A DNA stretch of 64,000 bases from a delta proteobacterium MLS_D (lineage in GTDB: Bacteria; Desulfobacterota; Syntrophia; Syntrophales; UBA2210). Below, piece after piece: positions 5,892-35,699 of this stretch. A program made the translations under genes and the position numbers. The notes beneath the pieces were generated by a model. It worked only from the letters and a program-made list of their open reading frames with translations, was not told the DNA's origin and did not search any database. The DNA is taken from positions 3,190 to 67,189 of the forward strand of contig LQBH01000001.1 of NCBI GenBank assembly GCA_002030015.1, given 5' to 3'. Numbering within the stretch: position 1 is the stretch's first letter; the number at the start of each line of letters is the position of its first letter.

Positions 5892-5906
5892 GGGTGAGAA
5901 AAACGC

Positions 5907-18194: not shown

Positions 18195-18209
18195 AAGGGA
18201 GGATGAGAC

Positions 18210-19373: not shown

Positions 19374-19489
19374 TCAGTTGCAGGTTTTCGGTGGAATGTC
19401 GGGACTCCTGGTGACACGCCTTTCCGGATTCGATCCGGTGCGCCGGGGCGTTCTTACCGGGTAATGCTTTTTTTACCTCCCTTTCATCG

Positions 19490-19523
19490 GTCGGGGCGGG
19501 TGACCGCCCCGGCTTTGTTATTT
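19490..19523 (+). terminator. Probable intrinsic terminator downstream of ftsZ
   Basis: GTCGGGGCGG-GTGA-CCGCCCCGGC hairpin followed by TTTGTTATTT, between convergent genes. Confidence 0.55.
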
Positions 19524-19564
19524 CCTGCGGACCCGTTTTCAGGCGCTGTTCCGGCACCGCGTAC

Positions 19565-20842
19565 TTAAATAAAAAAAATAACGAGCAGTCCCAGCGACAG
19601 CATGAAGATGAATCCCGGCAGAATTGATCGTCTGAACAGCGCCGTACCTGCAAAGAGTGCGATACCGCCTTTGGCGGCCGTGTTTGCCGCCGCTGCGAGA
19701 AGTATCGATCGGGCCGCCGTGGTAAGTTCCAGTCCTTCGGGCTCATCGCTCAAGGCAGCCAGGGACAGGGCGATGGCATCCACGTCTGCCAGTCCTGCGA
19801 CAGCACTGGAAATATACGTACCCATGTCGCCGAGATAAACCTGGGCGGCCCGGCTGACCAGCAGAATACCCGCGAAAATGAATCCAAAGGTGAGCGCGGG
19901 CTTCAGTTCGAAGGGGTTGCTGAAACTGACGTCCGCCCTTTCTTTCGACCAGCGCGAACGGTAGAGAAACCAGCAGGCGAGCAGCCCTCCAGCTACGGGC
20001 GCCAGGACGGGAATCATGATCATTCGGGCAAGCTCGACATTCAGTACGGCCACCTCCACCACGACTCGACCGTACATGATTGTCCATGCGACGATAACGG
20101 CGAGCGCGAAAGGCCGTGCCAGATTTTCCGCGTCCCGGCTCCGCTGGCTGAAACTTACCGTGGCCGCGGTACTCGATGCGAGGCCGCCGAAAAGTCCCGT
20201 CAGGCCGATCGCCTTCCGGGTACCAATGACTTTTATCAGAACATACCCGACGAAACTGATTCCGGAAATAAGAATAACCAGTAACCAGATTTTATAGGGG
20301 TTCAGAACGTCGAGGGGCGGTATGCCGAAGTTTTCGTTAGGAAGAACCGGAAGAACAATAGCCGTGATGACGGCGAATTTCAGTGTCGCCCAGATGTCCT
20401 CCCTGGTAATTTTTTTCGCGAACCGGTGCAGTTCGGGTTTCACCGAAAGTACTACTGCTATGGTGACACCCAGGGCCACAGCCAGAGTCAGGTGCTTCCA
20501 GAACGCAAGAACGCCCACGAAGAAGGTTAACAGAGCGGCAACCTCCGTGGTAATGCCTGTTTCACCCCGTGAGGATTCAATGGCATAGTTTATGGCGAAG
20601 AGGGCGCCCAGAATGAGAAGCGATGCGGCCATGGGCAGCGGTGAACCGGTCAGGTCGGAGACATAACCCGCTGTACACCCCAGGAGGGCCATGAGGGAAA
20701 AGGTTCTCGCGCCCGAAACAAGCTCGCGGTCTTCCTTTTCGAAGGCGTGTTCCCGTTGCATGCCGATCAATATTCCGATGACAAGAGCGATGCCGAACCT
20801 CAGGAAAAGGCTGCTTTCATCGATATGGGGCATAGTGATCAC
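19565..20842 (-). CDS. MgtC/SapB family membrane protein with C-terminal DUF4010
   Basis: GILIGMQRE, SGARTF, GITTEVAA, GLASSTAAT, GLADVDAI; multi-TM. Confidence 0.85.
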   Translation of the reverse strand: MITMPHIDESSLFLRFGIALVIGILIGMQREHAFEKEDRELVSGARTFSLMALLGCTAGYVSDLTGSPLPMAASLLILGALFAINYAIESSRGETGITTEVAALLTFFVGVLAFWKHLTLAVALGVTIAVVLSVKPELHRFAKKITREDIWATLKFAVITAIVLPVLPNENFGIPPLDVLNPYKIWLLVILISGISFVGYVLIKVIGTRKAIGLTGLFGGLASSTAATVSFSQRSRDAENLARPFALAVIVAWTIMYGRVVVEVAVLNVELARMIMIPVLAPVAGGLLACWFLYRSRWSKERADVSFSNPFELKPALTFGFIFAGILLVSRAAQVYLGDMGTYISSAVAGLADVDAIALSLAALSDEPEGLELTTAARSILLAAAANTAAKGGIALFAGTALFRRSILPGFIFMLSLGLLVIFFI

Positions 20843-20903
20843 GGTAATTATCCCTCCCCGCGAGCGGTTCCGTCACGGCGATACCGCCGCCCGCCGCAAC
20901 GCT

Positions 20904-21773
20904 TTATGACTGAAGAAAATCATTCAACAGGGCGGCAACCGTTTCAGGGCGCTCTTCCTGCAGAAAATGGCCGGCATCCACTTCGACGACCTTGACATCG
21001 TCGAAACAGGACTCGACGTGATTCAGGTACTGGGGAATAATAACAATATCCTTGTTTCCGTAAATATAAAGGGACGGCATGGGGAATTTTGTTCCCGCCA
21101 GTTCGGCCCACCGTTTCTGGTCCCTGTTCATGGCCCGGTAATAATACGCGGCCGTTGCCGGTGTGTTCTCGATACTGTAGCACCTGACATACTCGTCGAT
21201 GGCCTCTTGTGAAATACGACCGTCGCGCCCGGCCTTTCCGAAGAAATAGCGGACCCAGACGTCCTCGTTGCCCGGTATCATGGCTTCCGCCAGTCCCGGT
21301 TGCTGCTGAAAGTATTGATACCAGAAAGGCAACGATCCCATCGACTGAATGACTTTCAGGGCCTCGGCGTTGCCCTGTGCGTTGTTGATGACAATCATAT
21401 TCATCAGTACGAACTTTTTGACCCGTTCCGGAACGGCCAGGGCGGTTTCCTGCGCGACGGCGCCTCCCCAGTCGTGACCGGCAAGATAAAAGGAATCAAT
21501 GCCGAGTGCATCGATTATTTCGATGACGTCTTTTGCCAGCTCATTTTTCAGGTAACAATCCGGGTTCATTGTCCGCTCGCTGTCACCGAGGCCGCGCAGA
21601 TCGGGCGCGATGAGCCGTAGATCTTCTCGCAGAAACGGCGTCAAAGCCTCCCAGCAGCAGGACGTTTCGGGCCAGCCGTGAATCATGACGAGGGGCGTTC
21701 CATTCTCGTTTCCCCGGTCGCGGACGTTAAAGGCACCCCGCGAGAGGGACAGTTTCCGTGTTTCCATCATCAT
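20904..21773 (-). CDS. Alpha/beta hydrolase (epoxide hydrolase / haloacetate dehalogenase-like)
   Basis: HGWP oxyanion motif, PDLRGLG, GHDWGG (Asp nucleophile), AGHFLQEE. Confidence 0.85.
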   Translation of the reverse strand: MMMETRKLSLSRGAFNVRDRGNENGTPLVMIHGWPETSCCWEALTPFLREDLRLIAPDLRGLGDSERTMNPDCYLKNELAKDVIEIIDALGIDSFYLAGHDWGGAVAQETALAVPERVKKFVLMNMIVINNAQGNAEALKVIQSMGSLPFWYQYFQQQPGLAEAMIPGNEDVWVRYFFGKAGRDGRISQEAIDEYVRCYSIENTPATAAYYYRAMNRDQKRWAELAGTKFPMPSLYIYGNKDIVIIPQYLNHVESCFDDVKVVEVDAGHFLQEERPETVAALLNDFLQS

Positions 21774-21867
21774 TTTTCTCCTTTTCGCAGTTGTGGTTCA
21801 ATCGGTTATTATAATATTTTTCCGGACGGAACCCGGGACCTATATGGTGTTCACGGAGCACCCGGAC

Positions 21868-22581
21868 TCAGCCCGATTCATCTTCGAAACCCGCGTCAAC
21901 AGCAAGATTGTCCCCCGACGCGGCCCGCAAGGCCAGTTCGTCGCATCGCGTGTTTCCCGGGTTTCCCGCATGGCCCCGAACCCAGATAATTTTTACCTGG
22001 TGACGTTCGCAGAGGCGAAGCAGGCGTTCCCAGAGATCGGCGTTGGCGGCTTGCTCCGAGCTAGTCCGCCGCCAGTTGTTTGCCTGCCATTTCTTCGCCC
22101 ATCCCTTGCTGATACCGTTGACCACATAGCTCGAGTCACTGTGAAGGACGATTCGCTCCGGTTTTTTCAGTGTTTCCAGGGCGACAATGCAGGCCATGAG
22201 TTCCATGCGGTTATTGGTGGTACGACGAAATCCGCCTGATAGTTCCTTCCTTTTTCCCCGGTTCGTGATAACTATTCCATAACCGCCTGGACCCGGATTG
22301 CCGCGGCAGCTCCCGTCGGTATAGATAATCACGTTTTCGGGAAAGGAATCGGAGCGGGCCTCGGAGGAGGATTTTTTCAAGGGACGATCCGCTCCGGCGT
22401 CTTTATTATTATCAAGATTACCAAGCCAGGCAGACGCCTCTGCCCTCGAGGCAAAACGTTTGTAACGGGCGCCGGCCCAGCCGCGCACCTGCTCCTCAGC
22501 ACCGCCGGGTCCGAACCAGGTGTTATAAATACCGGGCGCTCTTCCTTGTTTTACGGCGTAATATTTGATCTTGTCTGCCAT
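21868..22581 (-). CDS. rnhA: Ribonuclease HI with N-terminal hybrid-binding (caulimovirus viroplasmin-like) domain
   Basis: KYYAVKQGRAPGIYNTW N-domain; YTDGSCRGNPGPGG, TTNNRMEL, WVRGHAG, CDELA. Confidence 0.92.
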   Translation of the reverse strand: MADKIKYYAVKQGRAPGIYNTWFGPGGAEEQVRGWAGARYKRFASRAEASAWLGNLDNNKDAGADRPLKKSSSEARSDSFPENVIIYTDGSCRGNPGPGGYGIVITNRGKRKELSGGFRRTTNNRMELMACIVALETLKKPERIVLHSDSSYVVNGISKGWAKKWQANNWRRTSSEQAANADLWERLLRLCERHQVKIIWVRGHAGNPGNTRCDELALRAASGDNLAVDAGFEDESG

Positions 22582-22741
22582 CGTGCGTATCCTTTTACTG
22601 CCCGGTTCCGCCGGACGACGACTTTTTTATCATATTTTTTTGAATCCCCAGAATTATTTTTTGCAACCGGCTCGCGAACCCGCGGCCGGACATGCTGTTG
22701 CGACCCGGGAACGGCCGCGCCCGCTTCACCGGAACAGCCTG

Positions 22742-23560
22742 TTATGCTTTCTGCAAGTTTTTCCAGGTGGGGCGTTCAATGAATGACCCCGGCACGTTTT
22801 CTTCCATCTCCCGAAAAAGCGACAGGGGGACGGCGAACGTCATGAAGTGAGGATCACCCAGTTGTTTCCGAATATTGAGCCGCGCCGAGAGATCGGTGAG
22901 CCCGACCACGGCGCGGGGGGTTTGAGAACGGGCTTCCTGGTAAGGGTAGATTCCCATGGTCTGACATCCGGCAGCGTATGGAATAATAACGTTTTCGTTT
23001 CCCTTCTGGGCGTAATTTGCCAGAATCACCAGAGCCGACAATTGATCGGGAGTGGCGAAAAAAATAATAATTTCAGGAGGATTTTCTTGTTCGTCAGCAT
23101 CTTTCAGCGGCCTGAAAACCACGAAACGCCTGGGTATGGTCGTGATGGGCAGATCATCTATAAACTTCTGAACCCGTTCCGGGTCTTTCAAATACCGTTC
23201 ACCTTCAAGAAAGTCGTCGTACGTATCGGCTGTCACAAAGGGTCGGATTGATGCGGCCATGTCCTTCCCGCCTTCGCGGAAGGCGTTGCCGTAAGAAAGA
23301 AAATGACAGAAGCCTGTCAGTCCGCCGGGAAAGTTGACGTACTGGTTGCCGAATCCCAAGCCGACGCCGCCTCCCACGCAACCACATGTCTTTTCGTCAC
23401 AGACGGCCGGTTTCCCCTTGGCGGCGTGAGCCGCAAGCCACATGACGCAGCCCCATCGGCCTTCCTTGAACTGAACGGCCCCGTTCGGTTTTTCATCGCT
23501 CCAGGAGAGTGCGACGGGATAATGACGAAGGCCTATCGATTCGGCAATCATGGATTCCAT
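22742..23560 (-). CDS. DUF169 family protein
   Basis: Cys-containing CV...CGC.GG...LG, PDQLSAL, GC, GLTD..AR, F.VP pattern; ATG 23560 follows GGAGG. Confidence 0.75.
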   Translation of the reverse strand: MESMIAESIGLRHYPVALSWSDEKPNGAVQFKEGRWGCVMWLAAHAAKGKPAVCDEKTCGCVGGGVGLGFGNQYVNFPGGLTGFCHFLSYGNAFREGGKDMAASIRPFVTADTYDDFLEGERYLKDPERVQKFIDDLPITTIPRRFVVFRPLKDADEQENPPEIIIFFATPDQLSALVILANYAQKGNENVIIPYAAGCQTMGIYPYQEARSQTPRAVVGLTDLSARLNIRKQLGDPHFMTFAVPLSLFREMEENVPGSFIERPTWKNLQKA

Positions 23561-23598
23561 GAACTGATTTCCTCCTTCACGGGACGGTGATAATTCCC

Positions 23599-23614
23599 TC
23601 GAGATATATCTCGA
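23599..23614. promoter_or_regulatory. Perfect 16-bp palindrome, candidate operator of the DUF169 gene
   Basis: TCGAGATATATCTCGA, between a minus-strand TTGACA (23626-23621) and the RBS. Confidence 0.55.
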
Positions 23615-23741
23615 AAAGACTGTCAAGTAAACATGGGTGGAGATTTTAATCACTATCCGGCTGACATCGTTGCGGGAACGGGTGATTCCGATGCTTTTCG
23701 AAGACGCCGACCCGCGGCGGGATCAGCTCCGAATGACAATC

Positions 23742-23796
23742 TGTAACCCGGACAGTTTATGTGCTACAAACCCGGACAGTTTACGTGTTACTAACA
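23742..23796. mobile_element. Isolated insertion-sequence end (IS481/IS1202-like), no transposase
   Basis: Tandem 23-bp repeats AACCCGGACAGTTTAYGTGYTAC (23745-23767, 23769-23791; 21/23 identical), terminating in ...CTAACA. Confidence 0.55.
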
Positions 23797-23813
23797 CAAA
23801 ATGAACTTTCCAC

Positions 23814-23842
23814 TTGACGCGAAGGTACAACCTTCATACAAT
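23814..23842 (+). promoter_or_regulatory. sigma70-type promoter with an inverted repeat in the spacer
   Basis: TTGACG, 17 bp, TACAAT; spacer contains GAAGGT-aca-ACCTTC. Confidence 0.55.
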
Positions 23843-24156
23843 GCGCCACGGAACACGATCCGAATACTCACGCTGCTCTTCTTAATGTTGTGTTCCTGTC
23901 GCGGGTGTAAGGGTACAATCAATGTTACAGGACATGTCAAAGGATTGCTTGATTAAGGCGCGTCAGTCTGTCTGATTGCGGAAGGTGTTTCTTTGTGTAT
24001 GATCCCGAATCGGCCTCAAAGGGGGGAGATTCAGGAACTTTCAGTTCATGGGTACTGTCGGGAAGTAGCACGGGGCAGATTAACTCAGCGGAGACGCTGA
24101 AAAGGCCCCGCGGTGGTTTTTGTCATCGCGGGAGAAACAGAAAAGGAGGATGAACA

Positions 24157-25515
24157 GTGGTGAAAGGTATGCGTTGCTTGATTATTTCTGCGGCGGTTCT
24201 TGCCATGATTCTGGCCTTCGGTTCGACATCGTCGGCGGAAGCGCCCAAGGGAGAGCCGATTGTCATCGGTTATGTCGGCTTTACGCTTTCCCCGGGTACG
24301 AGGCCCTGCATGGACGTCCAGAGAATTGCAGTAGAGGAGATCAATCAGGCGGGCGGTGTTCTCGGACGGCCGTTGAAGTACGTAACAGCGGACAACAAGG
24401 GTCAGACCTCGCTTACTGTCGAGGGTGGCCGCCACCTGCTTCAGACTGAAAACGCCAAGTTTATATCCATCGAAGGACGGACGGAGATCTGCCTCGCCGC
24501 TCAGGAGAACTCGGCGGCAATGTTCAAGGACTATCCCCATATCCTGGTTTTCAACGGGCCCATGGGGATGGAACTGACGTCACGTGTGCTTGATGATTAT
24601 GAAAAGTATCGCTTCTGCTTCCGCGACTGGGATCCCGAGTCATCTCACTATGCCCAGCAGCGCTATTACTGGGAAGACACCTGGAACCGGATGCGGCCGG
24701 AGGGTTTCAAAAAGATCGCTTTCATCTGGGAAGACCTGGCATGGACCCATGCATGGCAGAAAGGCATTGACTTTCTGGATCTGCCCGACTGGGAAAGTTA
24801 CGCAGAAGGGTTCGGATACGACGTCGTGTTCAGCCAGGCTGTGGCGCCCCGGGGAACGATGTATCTTCCCGTTCTACAGCAGATAGCCCGATCCAAGGCC
24901 GACCGTATTTTCTACGTCAGCTCCTGGTTCACCGACACGGAATCATTCGTGAAACAGTGGGCTGATTCGGCGGCCCGTGACATTGCCGTCGACCTCTACG
25001 GCGGCGTATCGCAAACCAAGGCCTTCTGGCAGATGACGGGCGGCAAGGCCCTTGGCGTGGTCGGTTCCTACACGGAAACGGACATTCCCATGACGGAGAA
25101 GACGAAGCCCTTCTATGAAATGGCGAAGAAGAATAATATTCCCACCCAGATTCACGTTCACATCGCCTATGCCGACATCTACTTCTTCAAGAAGGTCATC
25201 GAAAATGCCGGCGGCGTGGACGACATCGACAAACTCATTACGGCCATGGAGACCTCGGAGACCACTTATTCCATGGGCAAGATGGCCTACGAGTCGGAGC
25301 GGGTGAAACCCTTCTTCCATTCGAAGAAGCGCGTGGATCCGAAGGATCCCGCGAGGGCGACCTATCCGGATGTCTTCCTGCAGCCCATCGCCCAGTACCA
25401 GAACGACGGCAAGATGCAGTACCTGGGCGGTTCCTGCCCCGAGAACGAACCTTTCTGGGAACCCTACGGTTCGCCTGAAGACTGGGTTTCGCCGGCAGAA
25501 TTGCGCAAACGGTAA
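24157..25515 (+). CDS. ABC transporter periplasmic substrate-binding protein (LivJ/PBP1 type), orphan
   Basis: Signal peptide; AVEEINQAGGVLGRPLKYVTAD family motif; RBS AAGGAGG. Confidence 0.85.
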   Translation: MVKGMRCLIISAAVLAMILAFGSTSSAEAPKGEPIVIGYVGFTLSPGTRPCMDVQRIAVEEINQAGGVLGRPLKYVTADNKGQTSLTVEGGRHLLQTENAKFISIEGRTEICLAAQENSAAMFKDYPHILVFNGPMGMELTSRVLDDYEKYRFCFRDWDPESSHYAQQRYYWEDTWNRMRPEGFKKIAFIWEDLAWTHAWQKGIDFLDLPDWESYAEGFGYDVVFSQAVAPRGTMYLPVLQQIARSKADRIFYVSSWFTDTESFVKQWADSAARDIAVDLYGGVSQTKAFWQMTGGKALGVVGSYTETDIPMTEKTKPFYEMAKKNNIPTQIHVHIAYADIYFFKKVIENAGGVDDIDKLITAMETSETTYSMGKMAYESERVKPFFHSKKRVDPKDPARATYPDVFLQPIAQYQNDGKMQYLGGSCPENEPFWEPYGSPEDWVSPAELRKR

Positions 25516-25545
25516 GGGGGAATCGCACCTGTTACCTTTGAACTG

Positions 25546-25587
25546 AAAAAGAGCCCCGTTCCGGCATTCCGGAACGGGGTTTTTTAT
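25546..25587 (+). terminator. Intrinsic terminator (possibly bidirectional)
   Basis: AAAAAGAG-CCCCGTTCCGG-catt-CCGGAACGGGG-TTTTTTT. Confidence 0.85.
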
Positions 25588-25785
25588 TATTTGGTTGTTG
25601 GATTGTTACCTTTCCATCCCCTGCGAACGCGAAAGAATCTGTGCAATTCAGCCGCGTGCTTTGCTCATGTCTGCCCAGGCGAACCGTCACTAGAGGTTTC
25701 TCCGCTGTTGTGGATTTTACCGGGGAGTGGTGTTACAAGAAAGTGTCAGGCGGGAACACCGGAAGATTGATACTCTGAAGGAGAT

Positions 25786-28461
25786 ATGGTCGGCATGAAA
25801 ACGAATTACCTGATGGCGATCGACGTGGGAGGGGGTTCCGGGCGCTGTTTACTTCTTGACCCCGATACGGGAACGGCGCATTCGGCACAGCGGAACTGGA
25901 CCCATCCCGCCGCGGCCGGAACGGACGGCCTGGGTTATGACATTGATTCCAACGATGTGCTGAAAAAACTGGGAGAGGCTTCTCGCGAGGTTCTCGCGGT
26001 CGCGGCAGTCGATCCCGGACAGGTTGCCGGCATAGCGGCGGGCGGCATGCGGAATACCATTGTCGTGCTGGACGCCGGGAACGACATTCTACTGGCGACA
26101 CCCAACCGTGACGCCCGGGCCCTCGGCGAAGGCCTGGTTCTGGGATCCGAACGGGGACAAGAGATACACGCCCTCACGGGACACTGGCCGACGCCGCTGT
26201 TTCTCGGAACCCGCCTGCTCTGGATGAAAAACAACGCTCCCGAAATCTTCAAGCGGGCCGCCGTCGCCCTCTCAATCACCGACTGGATGACCTTTATACT
26301 GTCTGGGCGCATTGTTTCTGAACGTTCGCAGGCGGGCGAGTCATTACTCCTTGACTTGAAGCAGGGCGCGTGGGCCGCCGATCTTATTGAATCACTTGAA
26401 CTCTCGGTGTCGTTCTTTCCGGAGCTTGTCGATTCTGGTACGTTTCTGGGAGGCCTCACGAAAGATGCGGCCGACCTTCTCGGTCTTGTTCCCGGCATAC
26501 CGGTGGCGGCCGGGGGAGCCGACACCCAGTGCGGTCTTCTGGGAACGGGCGCCGTGCGGGACGGTGACCTGGCCGTCATGGCGGGAACGACCATGCCGCT
26601 GCAACTGGTAACCGATGACCTGGTGCTTGACGAATCGGGATGCCTCTGGAGCGGGTTACACGTGCTTCCGGGTAAATTTATTCTGGAAAGCAACGGGCTG
26701 GTTACCGGCGATATAGTCGACTGGTTCGCCCGTCTTTTGTATCCGCTGTTTTCCGAGGCGACACTCTGTCTTTTTGCGGAAGCGGCTGCCTCCCGTCCGG
26801 GAGCGGAAGGTGTATATTCCACGTTCGGTGCTTCTCTGTTCGACGGCAGGAATGTCGGGTTTCCCGTCGGCAACCTGACCTTTTCACACATGATCACGGG
26901 AGATCCCTCGCGAAGCCGGACGCATATCGCCCGCGCGCTGGTCGAAGGGATCGCTTTTTCCGTTCGCGCCAATCTGGAACAGCTTGTGGCTGTTTCCGAA
27001 CGGGAAATTCCTCTGGTACGGGTATCGGGCGGTATGTCAAAGAGCCGGCTTTTCACGCGGATTATTTCCGATGTAACGGGACGGTCGGTTCTCGTGCCCG
27101 CCACCGGCGAAAGTACGTCCGTCGGCGCCGCCCTGCTGGCCGGCGTCGGCGCGGGGCTGTATCCTGACCCGGTATCGGCGGTCGAGGCCGTGGTTGCGGC
27201 GTCCGAAAAGCACAGTCCGGGAGATGAATCACCGAAATACGGCAGCCTCTATGCGGGCTGGCGGCAGGCTTTTGATAAACGCGGCGAAGCCGACAAAATA
27301 ATAGGTGATCTGCTCACGGCCTCCCTGTTTGAACCCGGCCCCACAGCCGGCAGAGCGGCCGACCCGTCTTTTGTGCCCGAGATCTGCATCACGGCTTCCA
27401 TGGACGCAGTAGCGCTTGATGAATTTGAAAAGAGGGGTTCCGTTACGTACGCCGATTGGAGAGAAACGCAGAAATTGTACGATGGAGGCGCTGATCTGGC
27501 GCGGATTCTCGCCGGGAAACATATATTCGTAACCGAGATGGACGTCGTGGATTTTGAGACCATTCGGGATGCCCGCGATCTTCGGGCTATCGTCACCTGC
27601 CGGGGAAACGCGGTCAACGTCGACCTGGCGGCGGCAACAGCCTACGGTATTCCGGTCATCAACACGCCCGGAAGAAACGCCGACGCCGTTGCGGACCTGG
27701 CGGTTGCCTTTATGGTGATGCTTGCCCGTAACATGCCGGGTTCACTTGATTTTCTCAAACACGGAGAGGTTCGTGAAGGCGATATGGTGAAGATGGGCGA
27801 CGCGTACCTGGGCTTTCAGGGAGAGGAGCTCTGGAGGAAAACTATCGGACTGGTAGGCATGGGAAGCGTCGGTGCCCGCGTAGCCGAACGATTAGCCGGA
27901 TTCGGAGCCGAGGTGATTTTCTTTGATCCGGGGGTTACGGCCGAAGCGGGGGCGCTTGCCGGGGGACGGAAAGTATCTTTCGAAACCTTGCTGGCCGAAA
28001 GCGATTTCGTGAGTCTTCACGCCCCCGTAATGGATACTACAAAGGGGATGATAAACCGTGCCGCTTTCGAAAAAATGAAAAAAGGCGTTTTTTTCATCAA
28101 CACTGCGAGGGCATCCCTGGTGGACGAAGCGGCCCTGCTGGAAGCACTGAACGCGGGAAAGGTCGCCGGCGCCGCACTGGACGTGTTTCCCGTCGAACCC
28201 CCGGGGTCTGACGATCCCGTTGTTTCACATCCCAACGTTATCGCCACGCCTCACCTCGGGGGGAATACGAAGGAGATCGCCGCACACCAGGGAGCGACAG
28301 CCGTCAGCGAGATCAGAAAACTCCTGGCCGGCGACAGGCCCGATTATATTCTCAATCCCGACGTTCTCGACGGGCTCAGCTGGACGTCGCCCCGTCCGCA
28401 GCCGGACGAAAAAAAACAAAAGGAGCTTGCCGCGAACCCGAGACCCTCGGTGACGTCATGA
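25786..28461 (+). CDS. Fusion: FGGY carbohydrate kinase (LsrK/YoaC-like) + D-isomer-specific 2-hydroxyacid dehydrogenase (YoaD/SerA-like)
   Basis: Kinase: YLMAIDVGGGSGR, GGADTQC, AGTT, SGGMSKS. Dehydrogenase: NTPGRNADAVA, GLVGMGSVG, INTARA, LDVFPVEP, TPHLGG. One uninterrupted 891-aa ORF. Confidence 0.88.
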   Translation: MVGMKTNYLMAIDVGGGSGRCLLLDPDTGTAHSAQRNWTHPAAAGTDGLGYDIDSNDVLKKLGEASREVLAVAAVDPGQVAGIAAGGMRNTIVVLDAGNDILLATPNRDARALGEGLVLGSERGQEIHALTGHWPTPLFLGTRLLWMKNNAPEIFKRAAVALSITDWMTFILSGRIVSERSQAGESLLLDLKQGAWAADLIESLELSVSFFPELVDSGTFLGGLTKDAADLLGLVPGIPVAAGGADTQCGLLGTGAVRDGDLAVMAGTTMPLQLVTDDLVLDESGCLWSGLHVLPGKFILESNGLVTGDIVDWFARLLYPLFSEATLCLFAEAAASRPGAEGVYSTFGASLFDGRNVGFPVGNLTFSHMITGDPSRSRTHIARALVEGIAFSVRANLEQLVAVSEREIPLVRVSGGMSKSRLFTRIISDVTGRSVLVPATGESTSVGAALLAGVGAGLYPDPVSAVEAVVAASEKHSPGDESPKYGSLYAGWRQAFDKRGEADKIIGDLLTASLFEPGPTAGRAADPSFVPEICITASMDAVALDEFEKRGSVTYADWRETQKLYDGGADLARILAGKHIFVTEMDVVDFETIRDARDLRAIVTCRGNAVNVDLAAATAYGIPVINTPGRNADAVADLAVAFMVMLARNMPGSLDFLKHGEVREGDMVKMGDAYLGFQGEELWRKTIGLVGMGSVGARVAERLAGFGAEVIFFDPGVTAEAGALAGGRKVSFETLLAESDFVSLHAPVMDTTKGMINRAAFEKMKKGVFFINTARASLVDEAALLEALNAGKVAGAALDVFPVEPPGSDDPVVSHPNVIATPHLGGNTKEIAAHQGATAVSEIRKLLAGDRPDYILNPDVLDGLSWTSPRPQPDEKKQKELAANPRPSVTS

Positions 28462-28530
28462 TGATGCGGGTGGAAAGATCCGGGCACGGCTGTTTGCAAT
28501 GATAACAGATCAGGAAAGGAAGCGCGGACT

Positions 28531-29208
28531 ATGAGCGTATACGAAACCTATCAGAAAGAAGTACTCCAGGCGGGTCTCTGGCTCTCGGAACACGGTTTTT
28601 TCGGTTCTCTGCGGGGTACCGGCGGAAACGTATCAGTCAGAATAGCGGGGGAAGACCTGATGGCCGTTACCCCTTCGTCGGTGAAATATCACGAGATTAC
28701 GCCGGAGGATATTTGTATCGTCGACCTTTCGAGTACCCTGGTGGAGGGGGAACGCGCCCCTTCAATCGAGGCGGGAATGCACGCCGCCGTTTACCGCGAA
28801 AGGCCGGATGTGAAGGCCGTCGTTCACACACACCAGACGTACGGAAGTGTTTTTGCTCTGATCAATCGTTCCGTCCCCGCCCTGTTCGACGAGGTTGCCT
28901 TCGCCCTGGGGGAAAAAATAGACATGATTCCCTACGCCCTGTCGGGAAGTCCGGAACTGGCGGCCAACGTGGGGCACGCGGTCAGGAACAATGCAAACGC
29001 CTATATAATCAGAAATCACGGGATTATCGCCCTCGGAAAAAATATGGACAAGGCGCTGCTGGCCGCCGAGCTCCTTGAAAAGGCCGCAAAAACTTACTGT
29101 ATTGCGCTTTCAACCGGAGTCCCCGTTGTCGAGCTGCCGGACGACGTTCTCGAGATGGCACGTGGCCTGCGGGAATACGAGGCGGAAGAAGCGAAAAAGA
29201 AAGGCTGA
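28531..29208 (+). CDS. Class II aldolase/adducin family (fuculose-1-P aldolase-like)
   Basis: GGNVSVR, TPSS, PSIEAGMH, VHTH and NHG zinc ligands. Confidence 0.9.
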   Translation: MSVYETYQKEVLQAGLWLSEHGFFGSLRGTGGNVSVRIAGEDLMAVTPSSVKYHEITPEDICIVDLSSTLVEGERAPSIEAGMHAAVYRERPDVKAVVHTHQTYGSVFALINRSVPALFDEVAFALGEKIDMIPYALSGSPELAANVGHAVRNNANAYIIRNHGIIALGKNMDKALLAAELLEKAAKTYCIALSTGVPVVELPDDVLEMARGLREYEAEEAKKKG

Positions 29209-29282
29209 ACGCCCCGGAATACAAAATAATTAAATTGTTTCAGCGTTTCCACGAAGAGTTTTCCCACCATCGGGAGGTTGCC

Positions 29283-30863
29283 ATGGCGAAAGAACCTATT
29301 TCCAGGCGCGGGTTTCTGAAACGATCACTCTGGACAGGCGCCGGCATCGGCGGTGTGGCGCTGGCGGGAGGAGGGGTTTATAAACTCCTGCGGGTCAGGG
29401 ACATCGAGAAACTTGTCGGTGCTTATCCCGGAGGAGCGGAACATCACGCCCTCGAAATAGTGAACGGCTCGGCGCCGCGGCCGAACATTGTGCTTATTTA
29501 TTGCGACGATCTGGGTTACGGGGATGTGGGTTGCTTCGGCAACTCGGTTATCCGGACGCCCCATGTCGACAGCCTGGCGGCTGAGGGTACGCGTTTTACC
29601 GAATACTATGCCTGTAATGCCGTGTGCGCGCCATCGAGGGCTGGTCTGCTTACCGGCAGATACCCACTGCGGACCGGCATCATCGGCAACACCTATCCCG
29701 AAAACGAACCGGTGGGCAGAAGGATGGCCAGGAATTTCGGTGTAATGCTGAAACACCTCGGGGTGCTGGATATCCGTGAAGAATATGTGGCGCGAGGTAT
29801 CGACGCCGCCGAAATAACCCTGGCGGAAGCGTTGAAAGTCGCCGGATACCGCACCGGCATGATGGGTAAGTGGCATCTCGGTGATTACAGCACCAATCAG
29901 GATTTCAACCCTCTGCGCCACGGGTTTGACTACTATTTCGGCGTTCCCTACAGCAACGACATGAGGCCGCTTCCTCTGTACCGTAACGAGACCGAACTCG
30001 ATGCCGACCTTGATTCGGGAGAAAAACAGGCGAAACTCACCGGCCGGTATACGGAGGAAGCGGTTAGATTCATAGAAAATTCTTCAGGCGGCCCCTTTTT
30101 CCTGTACCTGGCGCACACCTTTCCACACCAGCCGCTCTTTCCTTCCGAGCGGTTCGAAAAACAGTCGCGCGCGGGAAAATTCGGCGACGTGGTCGAGGAA
30201 ATCGACTGGAGCGTCGGGGAGATACTGAAATGCCTTGAGAGAAACGGCCTCGATCGTAATACCCTGTTGATATTCACCAGTGACAACGGTCCCTGGTACG
30301 AAGGCAGTACCGGCAGTCTTCGCGGGCGGAAGGGACAGAGTTATGAAGGCGGTTTCCGGGTCCCCTTTATCGCCCGGTGGCCGGGGAACATTCCGCGGGG
30401 AAGTGAGAATGCCGCCCCGGTGATGAACATCGATCTCTATCCCACACTGCTGTCGCTGGCGGGCGTCGGTCTGCCCCGGGACAGGATTGTGGACGGGAAA
30501 GATATTATGCCACTGCTCACCGGGACACGTACGCAATCTCCCCACGATGCGCTTTACTTTTTTCATTACGATCAACTGGAGGGGATCAGGGCAGGCAGGT
30601 GGAAATATTTTGATAAACTGCATCGCTACACATGGCCTATAGCCCTCGACGCCGCGGTGGTTCCGAATAAGCTGGGAGCCGATCAGCTGGGCGACAGGTG
30701 GCCCCTGTTGTACGACATCAAGCGTGATCCGGGAGAATCGTACAACGTCATCAACACCTATCCCGACGTGGCCGAACAACTGAAAAAGAAGATGGATACG
30801 TTCAGAAATCTCATGGCGGAAAATCCCCGGGGATTTAAAAACCGCTCTTCGTCCGCAATGTGA
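29283..30863 (+). CDS. Tat-exported Cys-type formylglycine-dependent sulfatase (arylsulfatase A-like)
   Basis: SRRGFLK twin-arginine signal; PNIVLIYCDDLGYGD, CAPSRAGLLTGR, GKWHLG, SDNG, YEGGFRVP. Confidence 0.92.
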   Translation: MAKEPISRRGFLKRSLWTGAGIGGVALAGGGVYKLLRVRDIEKLVGAYPGGAEHHALEIVNGSAPRPNIVLIYCDDLGYGDVGCFGNSVIRTPHVDSLAAEGTRFTEYYACNAVCAPSRAGLLTGRYPLRTGIIGNTYPENEPVGRRMARNFGVMLKHLGVLDIREEYVARGIDAAEITLAEALKVAGYRTGMMGKWHLGDYSTNQDFNPLRHGFDYYFGVPYSNDMRPLPLYRNETELDADLDSGEKQAKLTGRYTEEAVRFIENSSGGPFFLYLAHTFPHQPLFPSERFEKQSRAGKFGDVVEEIDWSVGEILKCLERNGLDRNTLLIFTSDNGPWYEGSTGSLRGRKGQSYEGGFRVPFIARWPGNIPRGSENAAPVMNIDLYPTLLSLAGVGLPRDRIVDGKDIMPLLTGTRTQSPHDALYFFHYDQLEGIRAGRWKYFDKLHRYTWPIALDAAVVPNKLGADQLGDRWPLLYDIKRDPGESYNVINTYPDVAEQLKKKMDTFRNLMAENPRGFKNRSSSAM

Positions 30864-30913
30864 CGGTTCCCGAATGCCGCGAGTTTCCACCTGTTTGTGA
30901 GAAATGATTGATT

Positions 30914-32134
30914 ATGGACAGCCTGTCACTGCTCTTGAAACCGGCGTCGTACCGCTGTAACCTCGAGTGCTCTTACTGTTTTTACAGGCGGGTCGCCGGT
31001 GTTTACGAACAACCGTCGACGTTCATGAAATACGACGTCCTGGACATGCTCGTCAAAACCGCCATGACGTCCGGCGCCCGGCGGGTTTCTTTCTGCTGGC
31101 AGGGCGGCGAACCAACGCTGATGGGTGTCAATTTTTTCAGGAATGCCGTTGAATTGCAGAGAAAATACGCCCGGCCGGGTCAGCAGGTCGAGAACCTGCT
31201 CCAGACGAACGGCGTGCTGCTTGACGACGACTGGTTTCGCTTTCTTCGCGACAACCGTTTCCTGGTGGGAATAAGCCTCGACGGACCGGAGAATATCCAT
31301 GACGCGTACCGCGTCGACCGAAACGGCGAAGGCACGTTTCAGCGGGTAATGGATGTGGTTGACGGCATGAGGACGGGCGGGGTTGATTTCAATATTCTCA
31401 CCCTGGTGCATGATAAAAACGTTCGGCAGCCTGATCGGCTGTATGACTTCATGCGCCGAAACAATTTCAATTATCTCCAGTTTATACCCTGTTTTGAAGT
31501 CGATGAGAAATCGGGGAAGGCACTGCCTTATTCGGTTGACGGCAGGGAACTCGGCGAGTTTTATTGCCGGCTCTTTGATCGATGGTACGAGGACGGGTTT
31601 CCCTACGTGTCGATACGGCTTTTCGCTGATATCCTGATCTACCTGGTTGACGGTGCTCTGACGTCCTGTTCCTGGCTTGAAGAATGTAAATCTTATATCG
31701 TGGTCGAGCATAACGGGGATTGCTATCCCTGTGATTTTTTCGTGTATCCCGAATGGCGCCTCGGCAATATAATGGAAGACAGCCTTGCATCCATCCTGGA
31801 CGGTAAAGCGAGAGAGGAATTCAGCGCCATGAAGACTGATATTCCGGCGGCTTGCCGTCATTGCCCCTTGTTCGACTTCTGCCACGGAGACTGCACGAGA
31901 TTCAGGTGGGACGGAACAGGTGGATATAGGGACGTCAGCCGGTACTGTGAAACCTGGTTGATGCTTTTCCGGCACATCGACCCGGTGAAAGACGAGATGC
32001 GGGATCGCGCCGTCCGGTTGAGAGAATCGATTCTGAGCGGTCGGTTTGATCTGATCGGCAGGAACCAGCCCTGTCCCTGCGGGAGCGGTAAAAAGCTCAA
32101 ACATTGTTGCGGCAGGGGCGCGCCGGTTATATGA
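30914..32134 (+). CDS. Anaerobic sulfatase maturase (radical SAM/SPASM, anSME) with C-terminal SEC-C motif
   Basis: CNLECSYC, WQGGEP, QTNG, ISLDGP, YPCDFFV, CxxCxxxxxCxGxC, GRNQPCPCGSGKKLKHCC. Confidence 0.92.
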   Translation: MDSLSLLLKPASYRCNLECSYCFYRRVAGVYEQPSTFMKYDVLDMLVKTAMTSGARRVSFCWQGGEPTLMGVNFFRNAVELQRKYARPGQQVENLLQTNGVLLDDDWFRFLRDNRFLVGISLDGPENIHDAYRVDRNGEGTFQRVMDVVDGMRTGGVDFNILTLVHDKNVRQPDRLYDFMRRNNFNYLQFIPCFEVDEKSGKALPYSVDGRELGEFYCRLFDRWYEDGFPYVSIRLFADILIYLVDGALTSCSWLEECKSYIVVEHNGDCYPCDFFVYPEWRLGNIMEDSLASILDGKAREEFSAMKTDIPAACRHCPLFDFCHGDCTRFRWDGTGGYRDVSRYCETWLMLFRHIDPVKDEMRDRAVRLRESILSGRFDLIGRNQPCPCGSGKKLKHCCGRGAPVI

Positions 32135-32187
32135 TTCGAAGAAACGGAAACGTCCTGTCGGAATATCGCCCGCCCCGGCCGTCTCAT

Positions 32188-32216
32188 TTGCCATAGTTTC
32201 CAACTTTATTTATTAT
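32188..32216 (+). promoter_or_regulatory. sigma70-type promoter
   Basis: TTGCCA, 17 bp, TATTAT. Confidence 0.55.
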
Positions 32217-32223
32217 ACAGAAC

Positions 32224-32994
32224 ATGTCCAGGGTATACTTAATAAGATGTTTCACGTGGGCAAGACGGCACATTCAAGCCTTTGTGCGCCGGTACACGGG
32301 ATACATGAATTCTCCCTCCGTACTCAGGCGTGGCGTCAGTTTCGCCGTATTTTCAGGTGTGCTTTTCCTGGCCGTCCTGGGCCTGCTGCATGTTATTGAT
32401 CCATACCCGCTGAGAGACTGGATCTATCTCCGGCTCAGTCTTCACGACCTCGGGGCGGCGGGACCGATCATCTTTATCTTGCTGGCCGGCGTCCTGCCGC
32501 TTTTTTCACCTTTGAACATACTGGTAGTGACCGGCTCGGCAAGTTTCGGACCGGTAGTCGGTATGATCCTGTCCTACCTGGGGGCCCTGATCAACGCCAA
32601 CATCACCTTTATTCTCGTCAAGGCGCTCGGCGTCGAGGACAAATGGGGGAACAGCCATCGTCAGGCCCGGATCAAAAGGAACATTCAACGCAACGGATAT
32701 CCCATTGTACTGCTGCTGCAGATCATCTCGATTTTTCCCTTCGTCGCCATCAATTCGGCGGCCGCTGCCGCCGGAATAGGGTGGAGGGATTTTATGAAAG
32801 CCAATCTCCTGGGTGTTATTCTCCCCATCGCGGTTTACTCGTTTTTCGGGGAAGCGATCGTCCTGGAACTGTTATCGCCCCGGATGTACTGCGCCTTCAT
32901 AATAGTAATATTTTTGACTATCGTGATTGTCGCATTGAGGGAGAAAAGAAATTCTCATCGGGGGCGAGGACAGCGTCAGCTTCGCAGGGAATAA
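32224..32994 (+). CDS. TVP38/TMEM64 (DedA-superfamily, SNARE-associated) membrane protein; start 32224 or 32305
   Basis: G..GPIIFI, FGPVVG..LSYLGA, PF.AIN.AAA..GI.W.DF...N.LG pattern. Confidence 0.75.
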   Translation: MSRVYLIRCFTWARRHIQAFVRRYTGYMNSPSVLRRGVSFAVFSGVLFLAVLGLLHVIDPYPLRDWIYLRLSLHDLGAAGPIIFILLAGVLPLFSPLNILVVTGSASFGPVVGMILSYLGALINANITFILVKALGVEDKWGNSHRQARIKRNIQRNGYPIVLLLQIISIFPFVAINSAAAAAGIGWRDFMKANLLGVILPIAVYSFFGEAIVLELLSPRMYCAFIIVIFLTIVIVALREKRNSHRGRGQRQLRRE

Positions 32995-33166
32995 CCGTGT
33001 CGCCGGACCGGTTTCCGGCAGTCGGTAACGGAGAAAATTATTAATCGCCGTCAGGGTGTTCTGTGTTTTTCAATTATTTTCGTGGCGGGGTCAACAGGCG
33101 GGAGTTGATCATCGGGCGTTTGATCCGGGGCCACGGAAACGGTCGATACCGGCTTTTTCTCCTTCA

Positions 33167-33203
33167 AAAAAAAAGAACCTGGCGTGTAATAATCCAGGTT
33201 CCT
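33167..33203 (-). terminator. Intrinsic terminator downstream of tRNA-Glu
   Basis: Minus strand GAACCTGG-loop-CCAGGTTC followed by a T-run. Confidence 0.7.
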
Positions 33204-33214
33204 GAGAGAAAAAC

Positions 33215-33290
33215 TGGCGTCCCCACGGGGAGTCGAACCCCGGTTACCGGCGTGAAAGGCCGGTGTCCTAGGCCACTAGACGATGGGGAC
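33215..33290 (-). tRNA. tRNA-Glu (TTC)
   Basis: Reverse complement GTCCCCATCGTCTAGTGGCCTAGGACACCGGCC-TTTCAC-GCCGGTAACCGGGGTTCGACTCCCCGTGGGGACGCCA; cloverleaf, encoded CCA. Confidence 0.97.
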
Positions 33291-33415
33291 GAAAAGACGT
33301 GATTCAAGCCGGAATTAAAGTGCGCTCTATATATCGTTCGGTGCGACCTGTCAAGAAGAAACGACCACGGTTGTCAGCCTCTTGCGCACTATTTACGGGT
33401 GCTTTGCACGTGGTG

Positions 33416-35506
33416 CTATTCGAATACCACCGGTTCACGCATGATGACATCCCGCGCTTCCATCGCCAGGGCGGCTATGGCCGGGTGTGTTTCCCGGAGG
33501 GACCCGATCTGGCGGAGGTTGTCCGCCGTTCTCGATATCAGCATGACCAGATCGCCGTCGGCGATTTTCAGGCTGCCGGTTACGAGATTCCAATCCAGAC
33601 CGCGGGCCCAGTGATAGATGGCGAGCGAAGCCCAGAGGGGAAGCGCGGCGGTTTCAAATCCATCCGCCGCCATCCGATCCGCCAGGGGTTTGACAGCCGC
33701 CGCGACGGCGTCGTAGGCCGTCCGAAGCCTGCGCGGCACGTCTCTCTTTCTGAGCGTGATATCCTGTCCGCGGTCGGAAACAAAGGCGGCCACCACTGCC
33801 GCCAGCAGCGCCGGGTCGTCTCCGGGGAAAACTTCATCCTTCACGCACTGGGCGATCAGCAGGGGCTGGTCAAGGCGGAGCCGTGACGCCCACATTCCCG
33901 ACTCGGTCAGTCTTCCGCGGTCATCAACGTAGCCTTCCTGTTGGAGAAAAGCCAGGTGACGGAGGAAATCCTTCCAGAGCCCGCCGCTCTGGGGTCGTTT
34001 CTTTTTCGTCGGCCGGAAGTCGGCGAAGGAGGATTCAAAAATAATCCTGATTTCGTCGGGGCCGTGCGACAGAAGAAGGTTGAGGGCCATGGAAAAATCA
34101 TTTTTTATCCGGCTCTCGATCCGTTCGGATTTTTTCGCCAGCATTTTCCGGATGTGATGCAGGTCCATGAATCTGCCGGGGAACACGATCATGAAACCGA
34201 CGTTGTCGAGTCCTCTCCTTCCCGCCCGACCCGTCATCTGGTGAAATTCCGTGGCGGTCAGCGGTACGAATTCATGGCCGTTGAACCGGTCGGAGTTGAA
34301 CAGCACCACGGTGCGGGCCGGAAAATTGACGCCTGCCGCTATGGTTGACGTGGCGAAAACAGCTTCCAGGAATCCCTTCTTCATGAGATGTTCCACCAGA
34401 AATTTCCACGCCGGAAGCTGACCGCCGTGATGAGACGCCAGGCGCAGATATCTGAGAGCTTCCAGGTGCTTGTGGTTCCGGAGGAAGGGGTTGTTTTCCA
34501 GGTATGCCTCGAGGGTTTCTTCGAATTCCGCCGTGTCATGCAGATGCGGACGGCTGTGGCAGAGTGCGAGTGCGGCGTCGCATTCATCGCGGGACTTGAG
34601 AAAGAAGATCGCCGGCAGGAGGTTCAAGCGCCGGAGCGTGCAGGTAATGTCGTCGAATGGTGGAAAGCGGGGAAAACGTTTCGGCTGAGATCCCCGTTCC
34701 ATCCATGCCGTAACCTTGTCGTGGAGAGACCGTTCCTTCAAAAGTGGAGTGACCGTTCCCGACGGCTGCAGGAAAAGAGGGTGAAGATCAACGGGGCGTC
34801 TGGTTTCTGCTATGACGATGCATTTCTTGTCCCGTATCGACTGAAGCCACCCGGCTATTTCATCGGCGTTGCCGACGGTCGCCGAGAGCAGCAGAAGGTT
34901 GATCCTCGCCGGAAGGTAGATCATTATTTCTTCCCATACGACGCCTCGATCCGGATCTCCCATGAAATGAGCTTCATCGAGGACGACCAGATCGCAGTCG
35001 AGCATTTCTCCCCGGTGCATCGAATCGTAGAGCTGATTCCTCAGGATTTCCGTGGTGCCCACTACCAGGGGAGCGTCGGCGTTCTCGTGGGTATCGCCTG
35101 TTAAAATTCCCACCTGGTCATGGCCGAAGATACCGGAGAACTCGACCCATTTCGAATTCGACAAGGCCTTCAGCGGCGACGCGTACCAGCAGCGGCCGCC
35201 TTTTTGAAGCGTTTCGGCAATGGCCTTTTCCGCTATCCAGGTTTTTCCGGCGCCCGTGGGAGCGGTCACCAGGCAGTCCGTCCGGCCGATGGCCTCGATT
35301 GCCGCCACCTGGAAAGGATCCGGTCGAAACGTCGTTTCCTCCGGCTTCCCGATAAGGGTGAGCAGGTTTCGCAGTTCACCGTCTATCTGAGGCTTCATCC
35401 GTTTCCGTGACGGTTTTTGATCCGTCGAAACGGGGCGCCTCTTCCCGCCGGGCCTCCTGTTTCCGGGCTGCCTTCTGTATGTGAACTGTTTTGCAGTACC
35501 TGTCAT
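33416..35506 (-). CDS. Ski2-like (HelY-type) DEAD/DEAH-box helicase
   Basis: PDPFQ Q motif, APTGAGKT, PLKALSN, DEAH, SAT, HHGG, QMTGRAGRRG, DSHCT-like C-terminus. Confidence 0.9.
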   Translation of the reverse strand: MTGTAKQFTYRRQPGNRRPGGKRRPVSTDQKPSRKRMKPQIDGELRNLLTLIGKPEETTFRPDPFQVAAIEAIGRTDCLVTAPTGAGKTWIAEKAIAETLQKGGRCWYASPLKALSNSKWVEFSGIFGHDQVGILTGDTHENADAPLVVGTTEILRNQLYDSMHRGEMLDCDLVVLDEAHFMGDPDRGVVWEEIMIYLPARINLLLLSATVGNADEIAGWLQSIRDKKCIVIAETRRPVDLHPLFLQPSGTVTPLLKERSLHDKVTAWMERGSQPKRFPRFPPFDDITCTLRRLNLLPAIFFLKSRDECDAALALCHSRPHLHDTAEFEETLEAYLENNPFLRNHKHLEALRYLRLASHHGGQLPAWKFLVEHLMKKGFLEAVFATSTIAAGVNFPARTVVLFNSDRFNGHEFVPLTATEFHQMTGRAGRRGLDNVGFMIVFPGRFMDLHHIRKMLAKKSERIESRIKNDFSMALNLLLSHGPDEIRIIFESSFADFRPTKKKRPQSGGLWKDFLRHLAFLQQEGYVDDRGRLTESGMWASRLRLDQPLLIAQCVKDEVFPGDDPALLAAVVAAFVSDRGQDITLRKRDVPRRLRTAYDAVAAAVKPLADRMAADGFETAALPLWASLAIYHWARGLDWNLVTGSLKIADGDLVMLISRTADNLRQIGSLRETHPAIAALAMEARDVIMREPVVFE

Positions 35507-35622
35507 GGTGTCCTTTTTTCATCCTTCCACGTGCCGGGTAACGCTATCACAGTGAGATGCCGTCGTAAAGAAAGGGCTTCCGTAAAGAAGCGGGTCCTTT
35601 CTCGTCTTCAGGGCAGAATGAC

Positions 35623-35664: not shown

Positions 35665-35699
35665 AAACATGAACAACGAAAAGAGCTTCACCGTGCCTG

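Follow-up and report, generated by a model that had tools for sequence, protein, structure and literature searches.

The window analyzed here is a stretch of 64,000 nucleotides from the delta proteobacterium MLS_D (GenBank assembly GCA_002030015.1, contig LQBH01000001.1), whose 96%-complete genome is available as a 70-contig, metagenome-type assembly. At positions 25786..28461 on its forward strand lies a gene, P0001, whose single open frame encodes a protein of 891 aa made up of an FGGY-type kinase, a linker, a D-2-hydroxyacid dehydrogenase, and a conserved C-terminal tail. Seventy bases downstream, and on the same strand (28531..29208), follows the gene for a class II (FucA-like) aldolase of 225 aa, P0243. 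Judged from its sequence, P0001 is a genuine and intact fusion, predicted to be bifunctional as kinase and dehydrogenase. We give about an even chance to the reading that P0001 and the downstream aldolase constitute a three-step module, one that would take a substrate with vicinal hydroxyls at its end and release a C3 unit from it in the form of dihydroxyacetone phosphate (DHAP).

The fusion gene

P0001 starts with ATG, and GGAG lies ahead of it. The kinase module occupies 25807..27150 (+; residues 8-455), the dehydrogenase module 27397..28356 (+; residues 538-857), and the conserved tail 28357..28461 (+; residues 858-891), where R870 is invariant in a 21-sequence alignment of the family. An earlier note on this DNA, made from the letters alone, had described one uninterrupted open reading frame (ORF) of 891 aa, and the same frame was recovered here.

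For a window from an assembly of this type, it is worthwhile considering whether a chimera or a frameshift has joined two separate genes. The earlier note had named 27250-27400 as the place to look, and both this interval and the domain junction are bridged without a gap by two Logan contigs that stem from separate runs of other studies (X4 record 15, covering 26790-29036, and X6 record 18, covering 26180-29300); the sole indel listed in the Logan comparison is at 25721, upstream of the fusion gene. In addition, family members conserve both linker and C-terminal tail, and the architecture is common to 119 of the 120 best relatives, some of which are encoded on contigs of 1-4.8 Mb. The artefact reading is refuted by these observations, and we leave it next to no probability. 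Among the sequencing runs listed for the fusion-gene DNA there is no RNA run.

An AlphaFold2 model of the full protein has a mean pLDDT of 83.0 and a pTM of 0.59. The residues modeled with low confidence are 1-4, 368-370, 517-521 (in the linker), 651-676, and 825-827, of which 651-676 form a family-specific conserved stretch within the dehydrogenase module.

The two halves and their nearest named families

Pfam reports four domains in P0001, all above threshold: FGGY_N (PF00370; residues 8-253, 120.1 bits, cut-off 28.8), FGGY_C (PF02782; residues 263-455, 82.1 bits, cut-off 27), 2-Hacid_dh (PF00389; residues 538-857, 48.0 bits), and 2-Hacid_dh_C (PF02826; residues 641-825, 186.4 bits), the last two exceeding their gathering scores. 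It reports no ACT domain. The earlier description of an FGGY kinase joined to a D-2-hydroxyacid dehydrogenase without ACT is thereby borne out, and every motif quoted for it is found in the translation: IDVGGGSGR (11-19), GGADTQ (243-248), and SGG (414-416) in the kinase, and GMGSVG (691-696) together with INTAR (771-775), VEP (803-805), and TPH (821-823) for the Arg/Glu/His triad of the dehydrogenase. Invariant in the 21-sequence alignment are D13, D246, G691, G693, G696, D714, R775, E804, and H823. By the roles of the FGGY motifs, we take D13 to be the N-terminal phosphate-binding Asp and D246, in GGxDTQ, to be the catalytic Asp.

The kinase half (residues 5-515) scores best on the LsrK model of NCBIfam (NF008187), at 242.8 bits versus an equivalog cut-off of 528, and its best structure match is likewise LsrK (PDB 5ya0, E 2.8e-55); the kinase half, whose N-terminus the earlier note had called LsrK-like, is LsrK-like at a score below the equivalog level. 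The dehydrogenase half scores best on PGDH (TIGR01327), at 226.8 bits versus a cut-off of 454, and reaches 180.2 bits on a glyoxylate reductase model; its relatives of determined structure are PGDH/PHGDH and McyI (PDB 6plf, 9jnq). Neither half reaches any NCBIfam equivalog cut-off, those of LsrK and PGDH included.

Breadth and architecture of the family

A word-indexed search of 5.8 billion proteins gave 491 matches among 7999 scored candidates, and the best 120 were listed. The 119 of them that share the architecture hold both the kinase and the dehydrogenase Pfam domains. By length, 93 of the 120 are short forms (862-944 aa), 25 are long forms (1094-1473 aa), and 2 are partial (P0094 and P0096); the other 118 show 47-92% identity over at least 94% of P0001. 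The tails of the aligned short forms mostly carry an RP(S/T)xTS-like motif at their end. Other full-length fusions, for which the earlier note had suggested searching, therefore exist, and the architecture is not rare.

Where these relatives have source names, Syntrophaceae, Smithellaceae, Actinomycetota (Anoxymicrobiaceae), and Chloroflexota are found among them, and they are annotated only in general terms, as “NAD(P)-dependent oxidoreductase” or “AI-2 kinase”. When 1.84 billion representatives of 50% clusters were searched exhaustively with HMMER, the best 150 included 22 that match over both halves. Within a sample of genomes of the same class the fusion is patchily distributed: it is present in 23 of 301 genomes, the window's own counted, with 14 of 43 genomes in genus g14 and 2 of the 5 other genomes of the window's genus. 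Kinase-only matches shorter than 490 aa with at least 47% identity look like fragments, and the next ones are at most 35% identical. From this spread among relatives it follows that the fusion is old and stable, and not an accident of assembly.

Both halves come from textbook superfamilies, and the fused family is widespread in bacteria of anaerobic sediment, digesters, and the subsurface. A search of the full-text literature for a fusion of FGGY and 2-hydroxyacid dehydrogenase found nothing, and one for FGGY, class II aldolase, and aldehyde:ferredoxin oxidoreductase (AFOR) together found nothing relevant. The family is conserved and uncharacterized, with no characterized member found in print, which agrees with the earlier statement that no such enzyme was known.

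The long forms carry a kinase, a dehydrogenase, one or two SCP2 domains, and an aldolase on one polypeptide, in that order. A FastTree phylogeny built from residues 1-900 of 119 family members places all 25 long forms in one clade (support 1.0) that contains no short form, and these long forms carry Chloroflexota names wherever the source gives a name. Other module sets appear among the 50%-cluster representatives, namely kinase-dehydrogenase-SCP2 (P0259, P0264), a kinase-aldolase fusion without the dehydrogenase (P0274), and dehydrogenase-SCP2-aldolase (P0290). No other evidence speaks as strongly as this shuffling of modules among relatives for a single pathway that uses the kinase, the dehydrogenase, and the aldolase.

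A few representatives depart from these patterns. The single-domain representatives P0266, P0279, P0280, and P0285 (41-56% identity) are possible real split forms; P0272, from the same identity set, was rejected as one, being a fragment whose 90% cluster holds a member of 886 aa. P0281 (501 aa) consists of the dehydrogenase half followed by an MreB fragment and is possibly a chimeric gene call, and in P0297 (996 aa) the kinase half stands behind about 490 residues that have no Pfam match. A degraded Actinomycetota copy of the fusion (L009, 8407-9965) matches only residues 229-888 and is split by a frameshift over two overlapping ORFs; a URO-D-family gene takes the place of the kinase N-terminus.

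The class II aldolase partner

P0243 is the only Aldolase_II gene found in the genome. Its best structure matches are fuculose-phosphate aldolases (4c24, E 1.1e-37; 6btd, E 6.9e-34), and it matches the E. coli FucA structure with E about 1e-31. Its best NCBIfam model is FucA NF005302, with 157.5 bits versus a cut-off of 264; it reaches 122.8 bits on FucA TIGR01086 (cut-off 400.25) and 92.5 bits on the 3-oxo-tetronate 4-phosphate decarboxylase, OtnC (cut-off 250). E80, H99, H101, and H163 are invariant in the aldolase alignment and align with the metal ligands of FucA, which we take to be Glu73, His92, His94, and His155 (E. coli numbering), with Tyr113 as the presumed catalytic residue. On these comparisons P0243 looks like a DHAP-forming ketose-1-phosphate aldolase.

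An ortholog of this aldolase lies directly after the fusion gene in 15 of 19 same-class loci (13 complete, 2 cut by a contig end); 3 of the remaining loci are without it and 1 is uninformative. For a wider set, ORFs were clustered from 73 loci, 59 of which hold the fusion gene, and in 9 of these 59 the aldolase is directly 3' of it. To the fused aldolase domains of the long forms, the window's aldolase is only 24-31% identical.

A second conserved cluster with an aldolase ortholog (60-63% identical) was observed in two genomes of the window's order, at loci L185 (G079:C1:4313500-4330500, 364-8652) and L186 (G263:C33, 309-8507). Its order is an HpnA-like short-chain dehydrogenase/reductase (SDR), a TetR regulator, an FGGY kinase, a class III aminotransferase, a RuBisCO-like protein, a protein of 356 aa, and the aldolase, whose gene is read from the other strand. 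Since L186 begins at the kinase gene, L185 alone shows the SDR and TetR genes. The L185 SDR scores 356.9 bits on the HpnA model, just below the cut-off of 367.65. The stand-alone FGGY kinase is XylB-like and only 24% identical to P0001, the aminotransferase is GSA-aminomutase-like, and the RuBisCO-like protein is MtnW-like (323.6 bits versus a cut-off of 409). This looks like a second uncharacterized pathway that shares the aldolase subfamily. The window's genome has a second FGGY kinase of its own (contig C24), which was set aside: it is 26-27% identical and does not lie in the FGGY-aminotransferase-RuBisCO-like cluster of the relatives.

Neighborhoods of the relatives

Over the 73 loci the commonest neighbor is AFOR, found upstream and on the same strand in 14. 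AFOR genes are present elsewhere in the window's genome. Four long-form loci (L126, L129, L142, and L146) hold a full string of a GntR/UTRA regulator, AFOR, a class III aminotransferase, an M28 peptidase-like protein, an SDR, and the fusion, and parts of the string are found in L127, L128, L132, L144, and L149. Of the seven clustered SDRs, six reach 416-481 bits with the HpnA model (TIGR03466, cut-off 367.65), with the sterol demethylase SdmB as second-best model; the SDRs above the HpnA cut-off come from six loci, and in each the gene either adjoins the fusion gene or follows it closely. According to one source, hpnA has no established function (PMC12583986).

The Actinomycetota short forms have two other gene sets around them: AFOR with or without a BAAT-type thioesterase, or a B12-radical SAM protein, an M28-like protein, and a flavoprotein of the geranylgeranyl-reductase family. 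ADP-ribosylglycohydrolase-family genes were seen near the fusion in two unrelated loci (L003, 5360-6451; L112, 7136-7702), one of them two genes upstream and the other directly downstream.

A candidate three-step module

Put together, the fusion and its downstream aldolase suggest the following scheme. The LsrK-like FGGY kinase would phosphorylate a terminal primary hydroxyl, with ATP as the donor. The NAD-dependent dehydrogenase would then oxidize the neighboring secondary hydroxyl to a ketone and give a 2-ketose-1-phosphate-type intermediate, the phosphate being placed where 2-hydroxyacid dehydrogenases normally bind the carboxylate. Finally, the zinc aldolase would cleave this intermediate by a retro-aldol reaction to DHAP and an aldehyde. 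Enzymes of the AFOR type could oxidize the latter; AFOR, upstream as often as it is in the related loci, is a plausible sink for this product.

The order of the steps, the catabolic direction, and the product are what we infer, the order from the domain order of the long forms, which agrees with that of the proposed reactions, and from the needs of a FucA-type aldolase. The earlier note had the two halves acting consecutively on one substrate, with oxidation before phosphorylation. A shared substrate remains reasonable; because of the downstream aldolase, however, phosphorylation, then oxidation, then aldol cleavage is the better supported order. On the genomic side, the repeated shuffling of four modules (kinase, dehydrogenase, SCP2, and aldolase) argues strongly for a short pathway, as yet undescribed, by which DHAP would be fed into glycolysis. 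A name for its substrate would also correct many misleading AI-2 kinase annotations.

Several points weigh against this scheme. The first concerns the dehydrogenase: D-2-hydroxyacid dehydrogenases normally use 2-hydroxy or 2-oxo acids, the nearest named enzymes are PGDH and McyI, and the oxidation of a polyol phosphate by this half is a supposition. With neither half nor any partner at an equivalog cut-off, the specificities are tentative. The aldolase has Asp119, then Glu120, where FucA Tyr113 aligns, and the long-form aldolases have Thr or Ala, then Glu or Asp, at the same place; since the equivalent of Tyr113 is replaced, the chemistry may differ (e.g., be decarboxylase- or epimerase-like). 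The Actinomycetota short forms are without a close aldolase ortholog, and two of their genomes hold class II aldolases of only 30-38% identity. In three genomes of the window's order the ortholog lies in another cluster, with another FGGY kinase. Lastly, the wider neighborhoods vary, and no conserved transporter was found among the related loci.

Some of these points would suit a sugar-acid route, which we consider fairly unlikely. There, the substrate of the dehydrogenase would be a 2-hydroxy or 2-oxo acid in free form (glycerate/hydroxypyruvate, or of the erythronate/threonate type), the kinase would phosphorylate the acid, and the aldolase-fold protein would serve as an OtnC-like decarboxylase or isomerase that leads to DHAP or a phosphoglycerate-type product. 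The best named relatives of the dehydrogenase half (PGDH at 226.8 bits, glyoxylate reductase at 180.2 bits, McyI, and PHGDH) use hydroxy acids, OtnC is among the NCBIfam matches of the aldolase, and this aldolase is without a Tyr at the Tyr113 position. A logic of dehydrogenase, kinase, and class II-fold decarboxylase has been published for tetronates (PMC12994016), and the published guess for B. subtilis YoaDC is glycerate to phosphoglycerate (PMC2885750). The OtnC score of 92.5 bits is, however, far under its cut-off of 250 and under the FucA-type score of 157.5, and neither a 2-oxo-tetronate isomerase nor a sugar-acid transporter is among the recurrent neighbors. Moreover, the kinase here is of the FGGY family, whereas the kinases of the published tetronate routes belong to another one.

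The earlier note had turned to the B. subtilis genes and read P0001 as a YoaC+YoaD-like Rosetta-stone protein; in its full form, this reading would make it a fusion of YoaC and YoaD orthologs with an S-box link to sulfur or cysteine metabolism. The two superfamilies are indeed the same, and a published guess does put YoaD and YoaC in one pathway (PMC2885750). Nevertheless, no riboswitch or S-box was found upstream: an Rfam scan of 18000-36000 returned only a tRNA and a chance match to an internal ribosome entry site. In 71 dehydrogenase-only loci (L010-L080), neither an FGGY kinase nor this aldolase lies within 8 kb; this is a weak negative for split pairs, as these loci were chosen by peptide patterns. 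The conserved partner of P0001, moreover, is the aldolase, which is missing from yoaDCB in the form in which the earlier note gives that operon. We therefore hold the YoaC/YoaD origin to be very improbable.

The LsrK match raises another alternative, the salvage of a by-product of S-adenosylmethionine, to which we give a slim chance. The kinase would act on a diketone resembling 4,5-dihydroxy-2,3-pentanedione (DPD) or autoinducer 2 (AI-2), or on a 5-deoxypentose derivative, the dehydrogenase would yield, by reduction or oxidation, a 5-deoxy-pentulose-1-phosphate, and a DrdA/Ald2-like aldolase would release DHAP and acetaldehyde. LsrK is the best match of the kinase half by model and by structure (242.8 bits; 5ya0), and one of the best matches of the aldolase is 6btd, which we identify with DrdA, a 5-deoxyribulose-1-phosphate aldolase. 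Many neighborhoods are housekeeping-like and without transporters, and the genome, whose only class II aldolase is P0243, holds one MtnA-type isomerase. On the other hand, the LsrK score is below half of the cut-off. LuxS is the source of DPD, and no LuxS match was found in the 96%-complete genome. The Lsr operon context consists of LsrR, LsrACDB, LsrF, and LsrG; no Lsr-type genes are among the window neighbors (12 ORFs scanned, the rest of the genome not being searched for Lsr). The MtnA-type gene adjoins gatB and an HAD phosphatase, not salvage genes, and salvage would leave the SCP2 domain and the aminotransferase and HpnA-like neighbors of the relatives unexplained.

Lipid polyols as candidate substrates

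The three-step module may have a more particular purpose. Some long-form relatives adjoin HpnA-type SDRs, AFOR, and class III aminotransferases; such neighbors hint at a lipid polyol (e.g., a hopanoid side chain), and the family might supply the enzymes, missing so far, that trim the polyol tails of lipids, bacteriohopanepolyols being the foremost candidate. We treat this as a long shot. Its grounds are the SCP2 domains of the long forms, the HpnA-model SDRs at six loci, and the AFOR genes at 14 of 73. The kinase would phosphorylate the C35-OH of bacteriohopanetetrol, the dehydrogenase would oxidize the C34-OH, the aldolase would cut the C32-C33 bond to give DHAP and a C32 hopanoid aldehyde, and AFOR would turn the aldehyde into the C32 hopanoic acid. 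Where long-form operons include them, the class III aminotransferase and the HpnA-type SDR might act beforehand and convert the aminotriol to the tetrol.

The hopanoid case is weaker for the window than for the long forms, because its enzyme has no SCP2 domain and its genome has neither SCP2 nor HpnA: there, the best HpnA score is 42.8 bits, and neither an SCP2 nor a squalene-hopene cyclase match was found. Nine genomes of the class sample have a full-length match to squalene-hopene cyclase, but no such match was found in any of the 23 fusion holders; similarly, none of five Chloroflexota holders of a long form has a full-length match. With fusion holders lacking the full-length cyclase, an external source of the lipid would be required. 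Within 1.5 kb of the five Chloroflexota genome copies, AFOR is beside one and an HpnA-like gene beside none. Geochemists treat hopanoid side-chain breakdown mostly as diagenesis, and a search of the full-text literature for hopanoid-degradation wording turned up a single use of one such phrase. If true, the hopanoid view would provide a first enzymatic route for this breakdown.

Other features of the window

A strong, bidirectional terminator-like hairpin (25548..25585; 17-bp stem and T run) divides the fusion gene from an upstream gene for a solute-binding protein (Peripla_BP_6, 24157-25515). This gene was considered as a transporter component of the module and rejected because of that terminator. 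No terminator-like site as strong lies between the fusion, aldolase, sulfatase, and maturase genes; for the fusion and the aldolase, we count this operon structure in favor of the proposed module.

The sulfatase (29235..30863, +) is of the Cys type, with a CAPSR motif and a likely true start at ATG 29283; its twin-arginine (Tat) signal, SRRGFLK, implies that it acts outside the cytoplasm. The maturase (30908..32134, +) is an anaerobic sulfatase-maturating radical SAM enzyme (TIGR03942, 408.7 bits, cut-off 349.45). Both were considered as pathway members and dropped, as they trail the aldolase only in the window, L001, and L087 (87-92% identical); we read them as specific to this genus-level lineage and outside the core module. 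At its C-terminus (residues 385-403), the maturase also bears a zinc-finger-like SEC-C motif (PF02810, 37.6 bits), which is found in the close relative L001 as well.

Further away, an RNase H gene (21868-22581, -) has an N-terminal Cauli_VI/RNase H1-type hybrid-binding domain (PF01693). A DEAD/DSHCT (Ski2/HelY-type) helicase gene (33416-35506, -) adjoins tRNA-Glu(TTC) (33215-33290, -), and its position is kept in L001.

Comparison with known systems

LsrK is the best-scoring named relative of residues 5-515, and the two have in common the FGGY fold and the invariant catalytic Asp. The kinase half would work in the manner of LsrK or of a xylulokinase-type FGGY enzyme. Unlike LsrK, P0001 falls under the 528-bit cut-off, is fused to a dehydrogenase, and has no Lsr genes nearby and no LuxS match in the genome. 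Likewise, PGDH and McyI are the best relatives of residues ~570-860 and share with them the GxGxxG, the acidic D714 after strand 2, and the Arg/Glu/His triad. P0001 differs from these enzymes in its PGDH score (226.8 versus 454 bits), in the lack of ACT (a regulatory domain of the long PGDH type), in its extra conserved stretch (651-676) and conserved C-terminal tail, and in the place of the module behind a kinase.

FucK-FucA, RhaB-RhaD, and the DHAP shunt (DrdK-DrdI-DrdA) are routes of a kinase and a class II aldolase that lead to DHAP and an aldehyde. Here, too, an FGGY-type kinase gene adjoins that of a FucA-like zinc aldolase, and the expected products are the same. The known routes use an isomerase, whereas here a dehydrogenase is fused to the kinase; in addition, the window's aldolase differs from FucA in its score (157.5 versus a cut-off of 264) and in being without a Tyr that aligns with Tyr113.

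Tetronate catabolism (LtnD/DenD-OtnI-OtnK-OtnC, and the Ltn3D-3OtnK-3OtnC bypass) follows the same three-part logic of a dehydrogenase, a kinase, and an enzyme of class II aldolase fold (PMC12994016); its dehydrogenase is an SDR and its last step a decarboxylation, both unlike the module proposed here. The window's aldolase is also remote from OtnC, with only 92.5 bits versus a cut-off of 250.

The long-form kinase-dehydrogenase-SCP2-aldolase proteins, of ~1260-1485 aa and uncharacterized, are a separate clade, and P0001, unlike them, ends after the dehydrogenase, without SCP2, and has its aldolase as a separate gene. They nonetheless show 47-51% identity over 97-100% of P0001, and their sampled members share its invariant residues.

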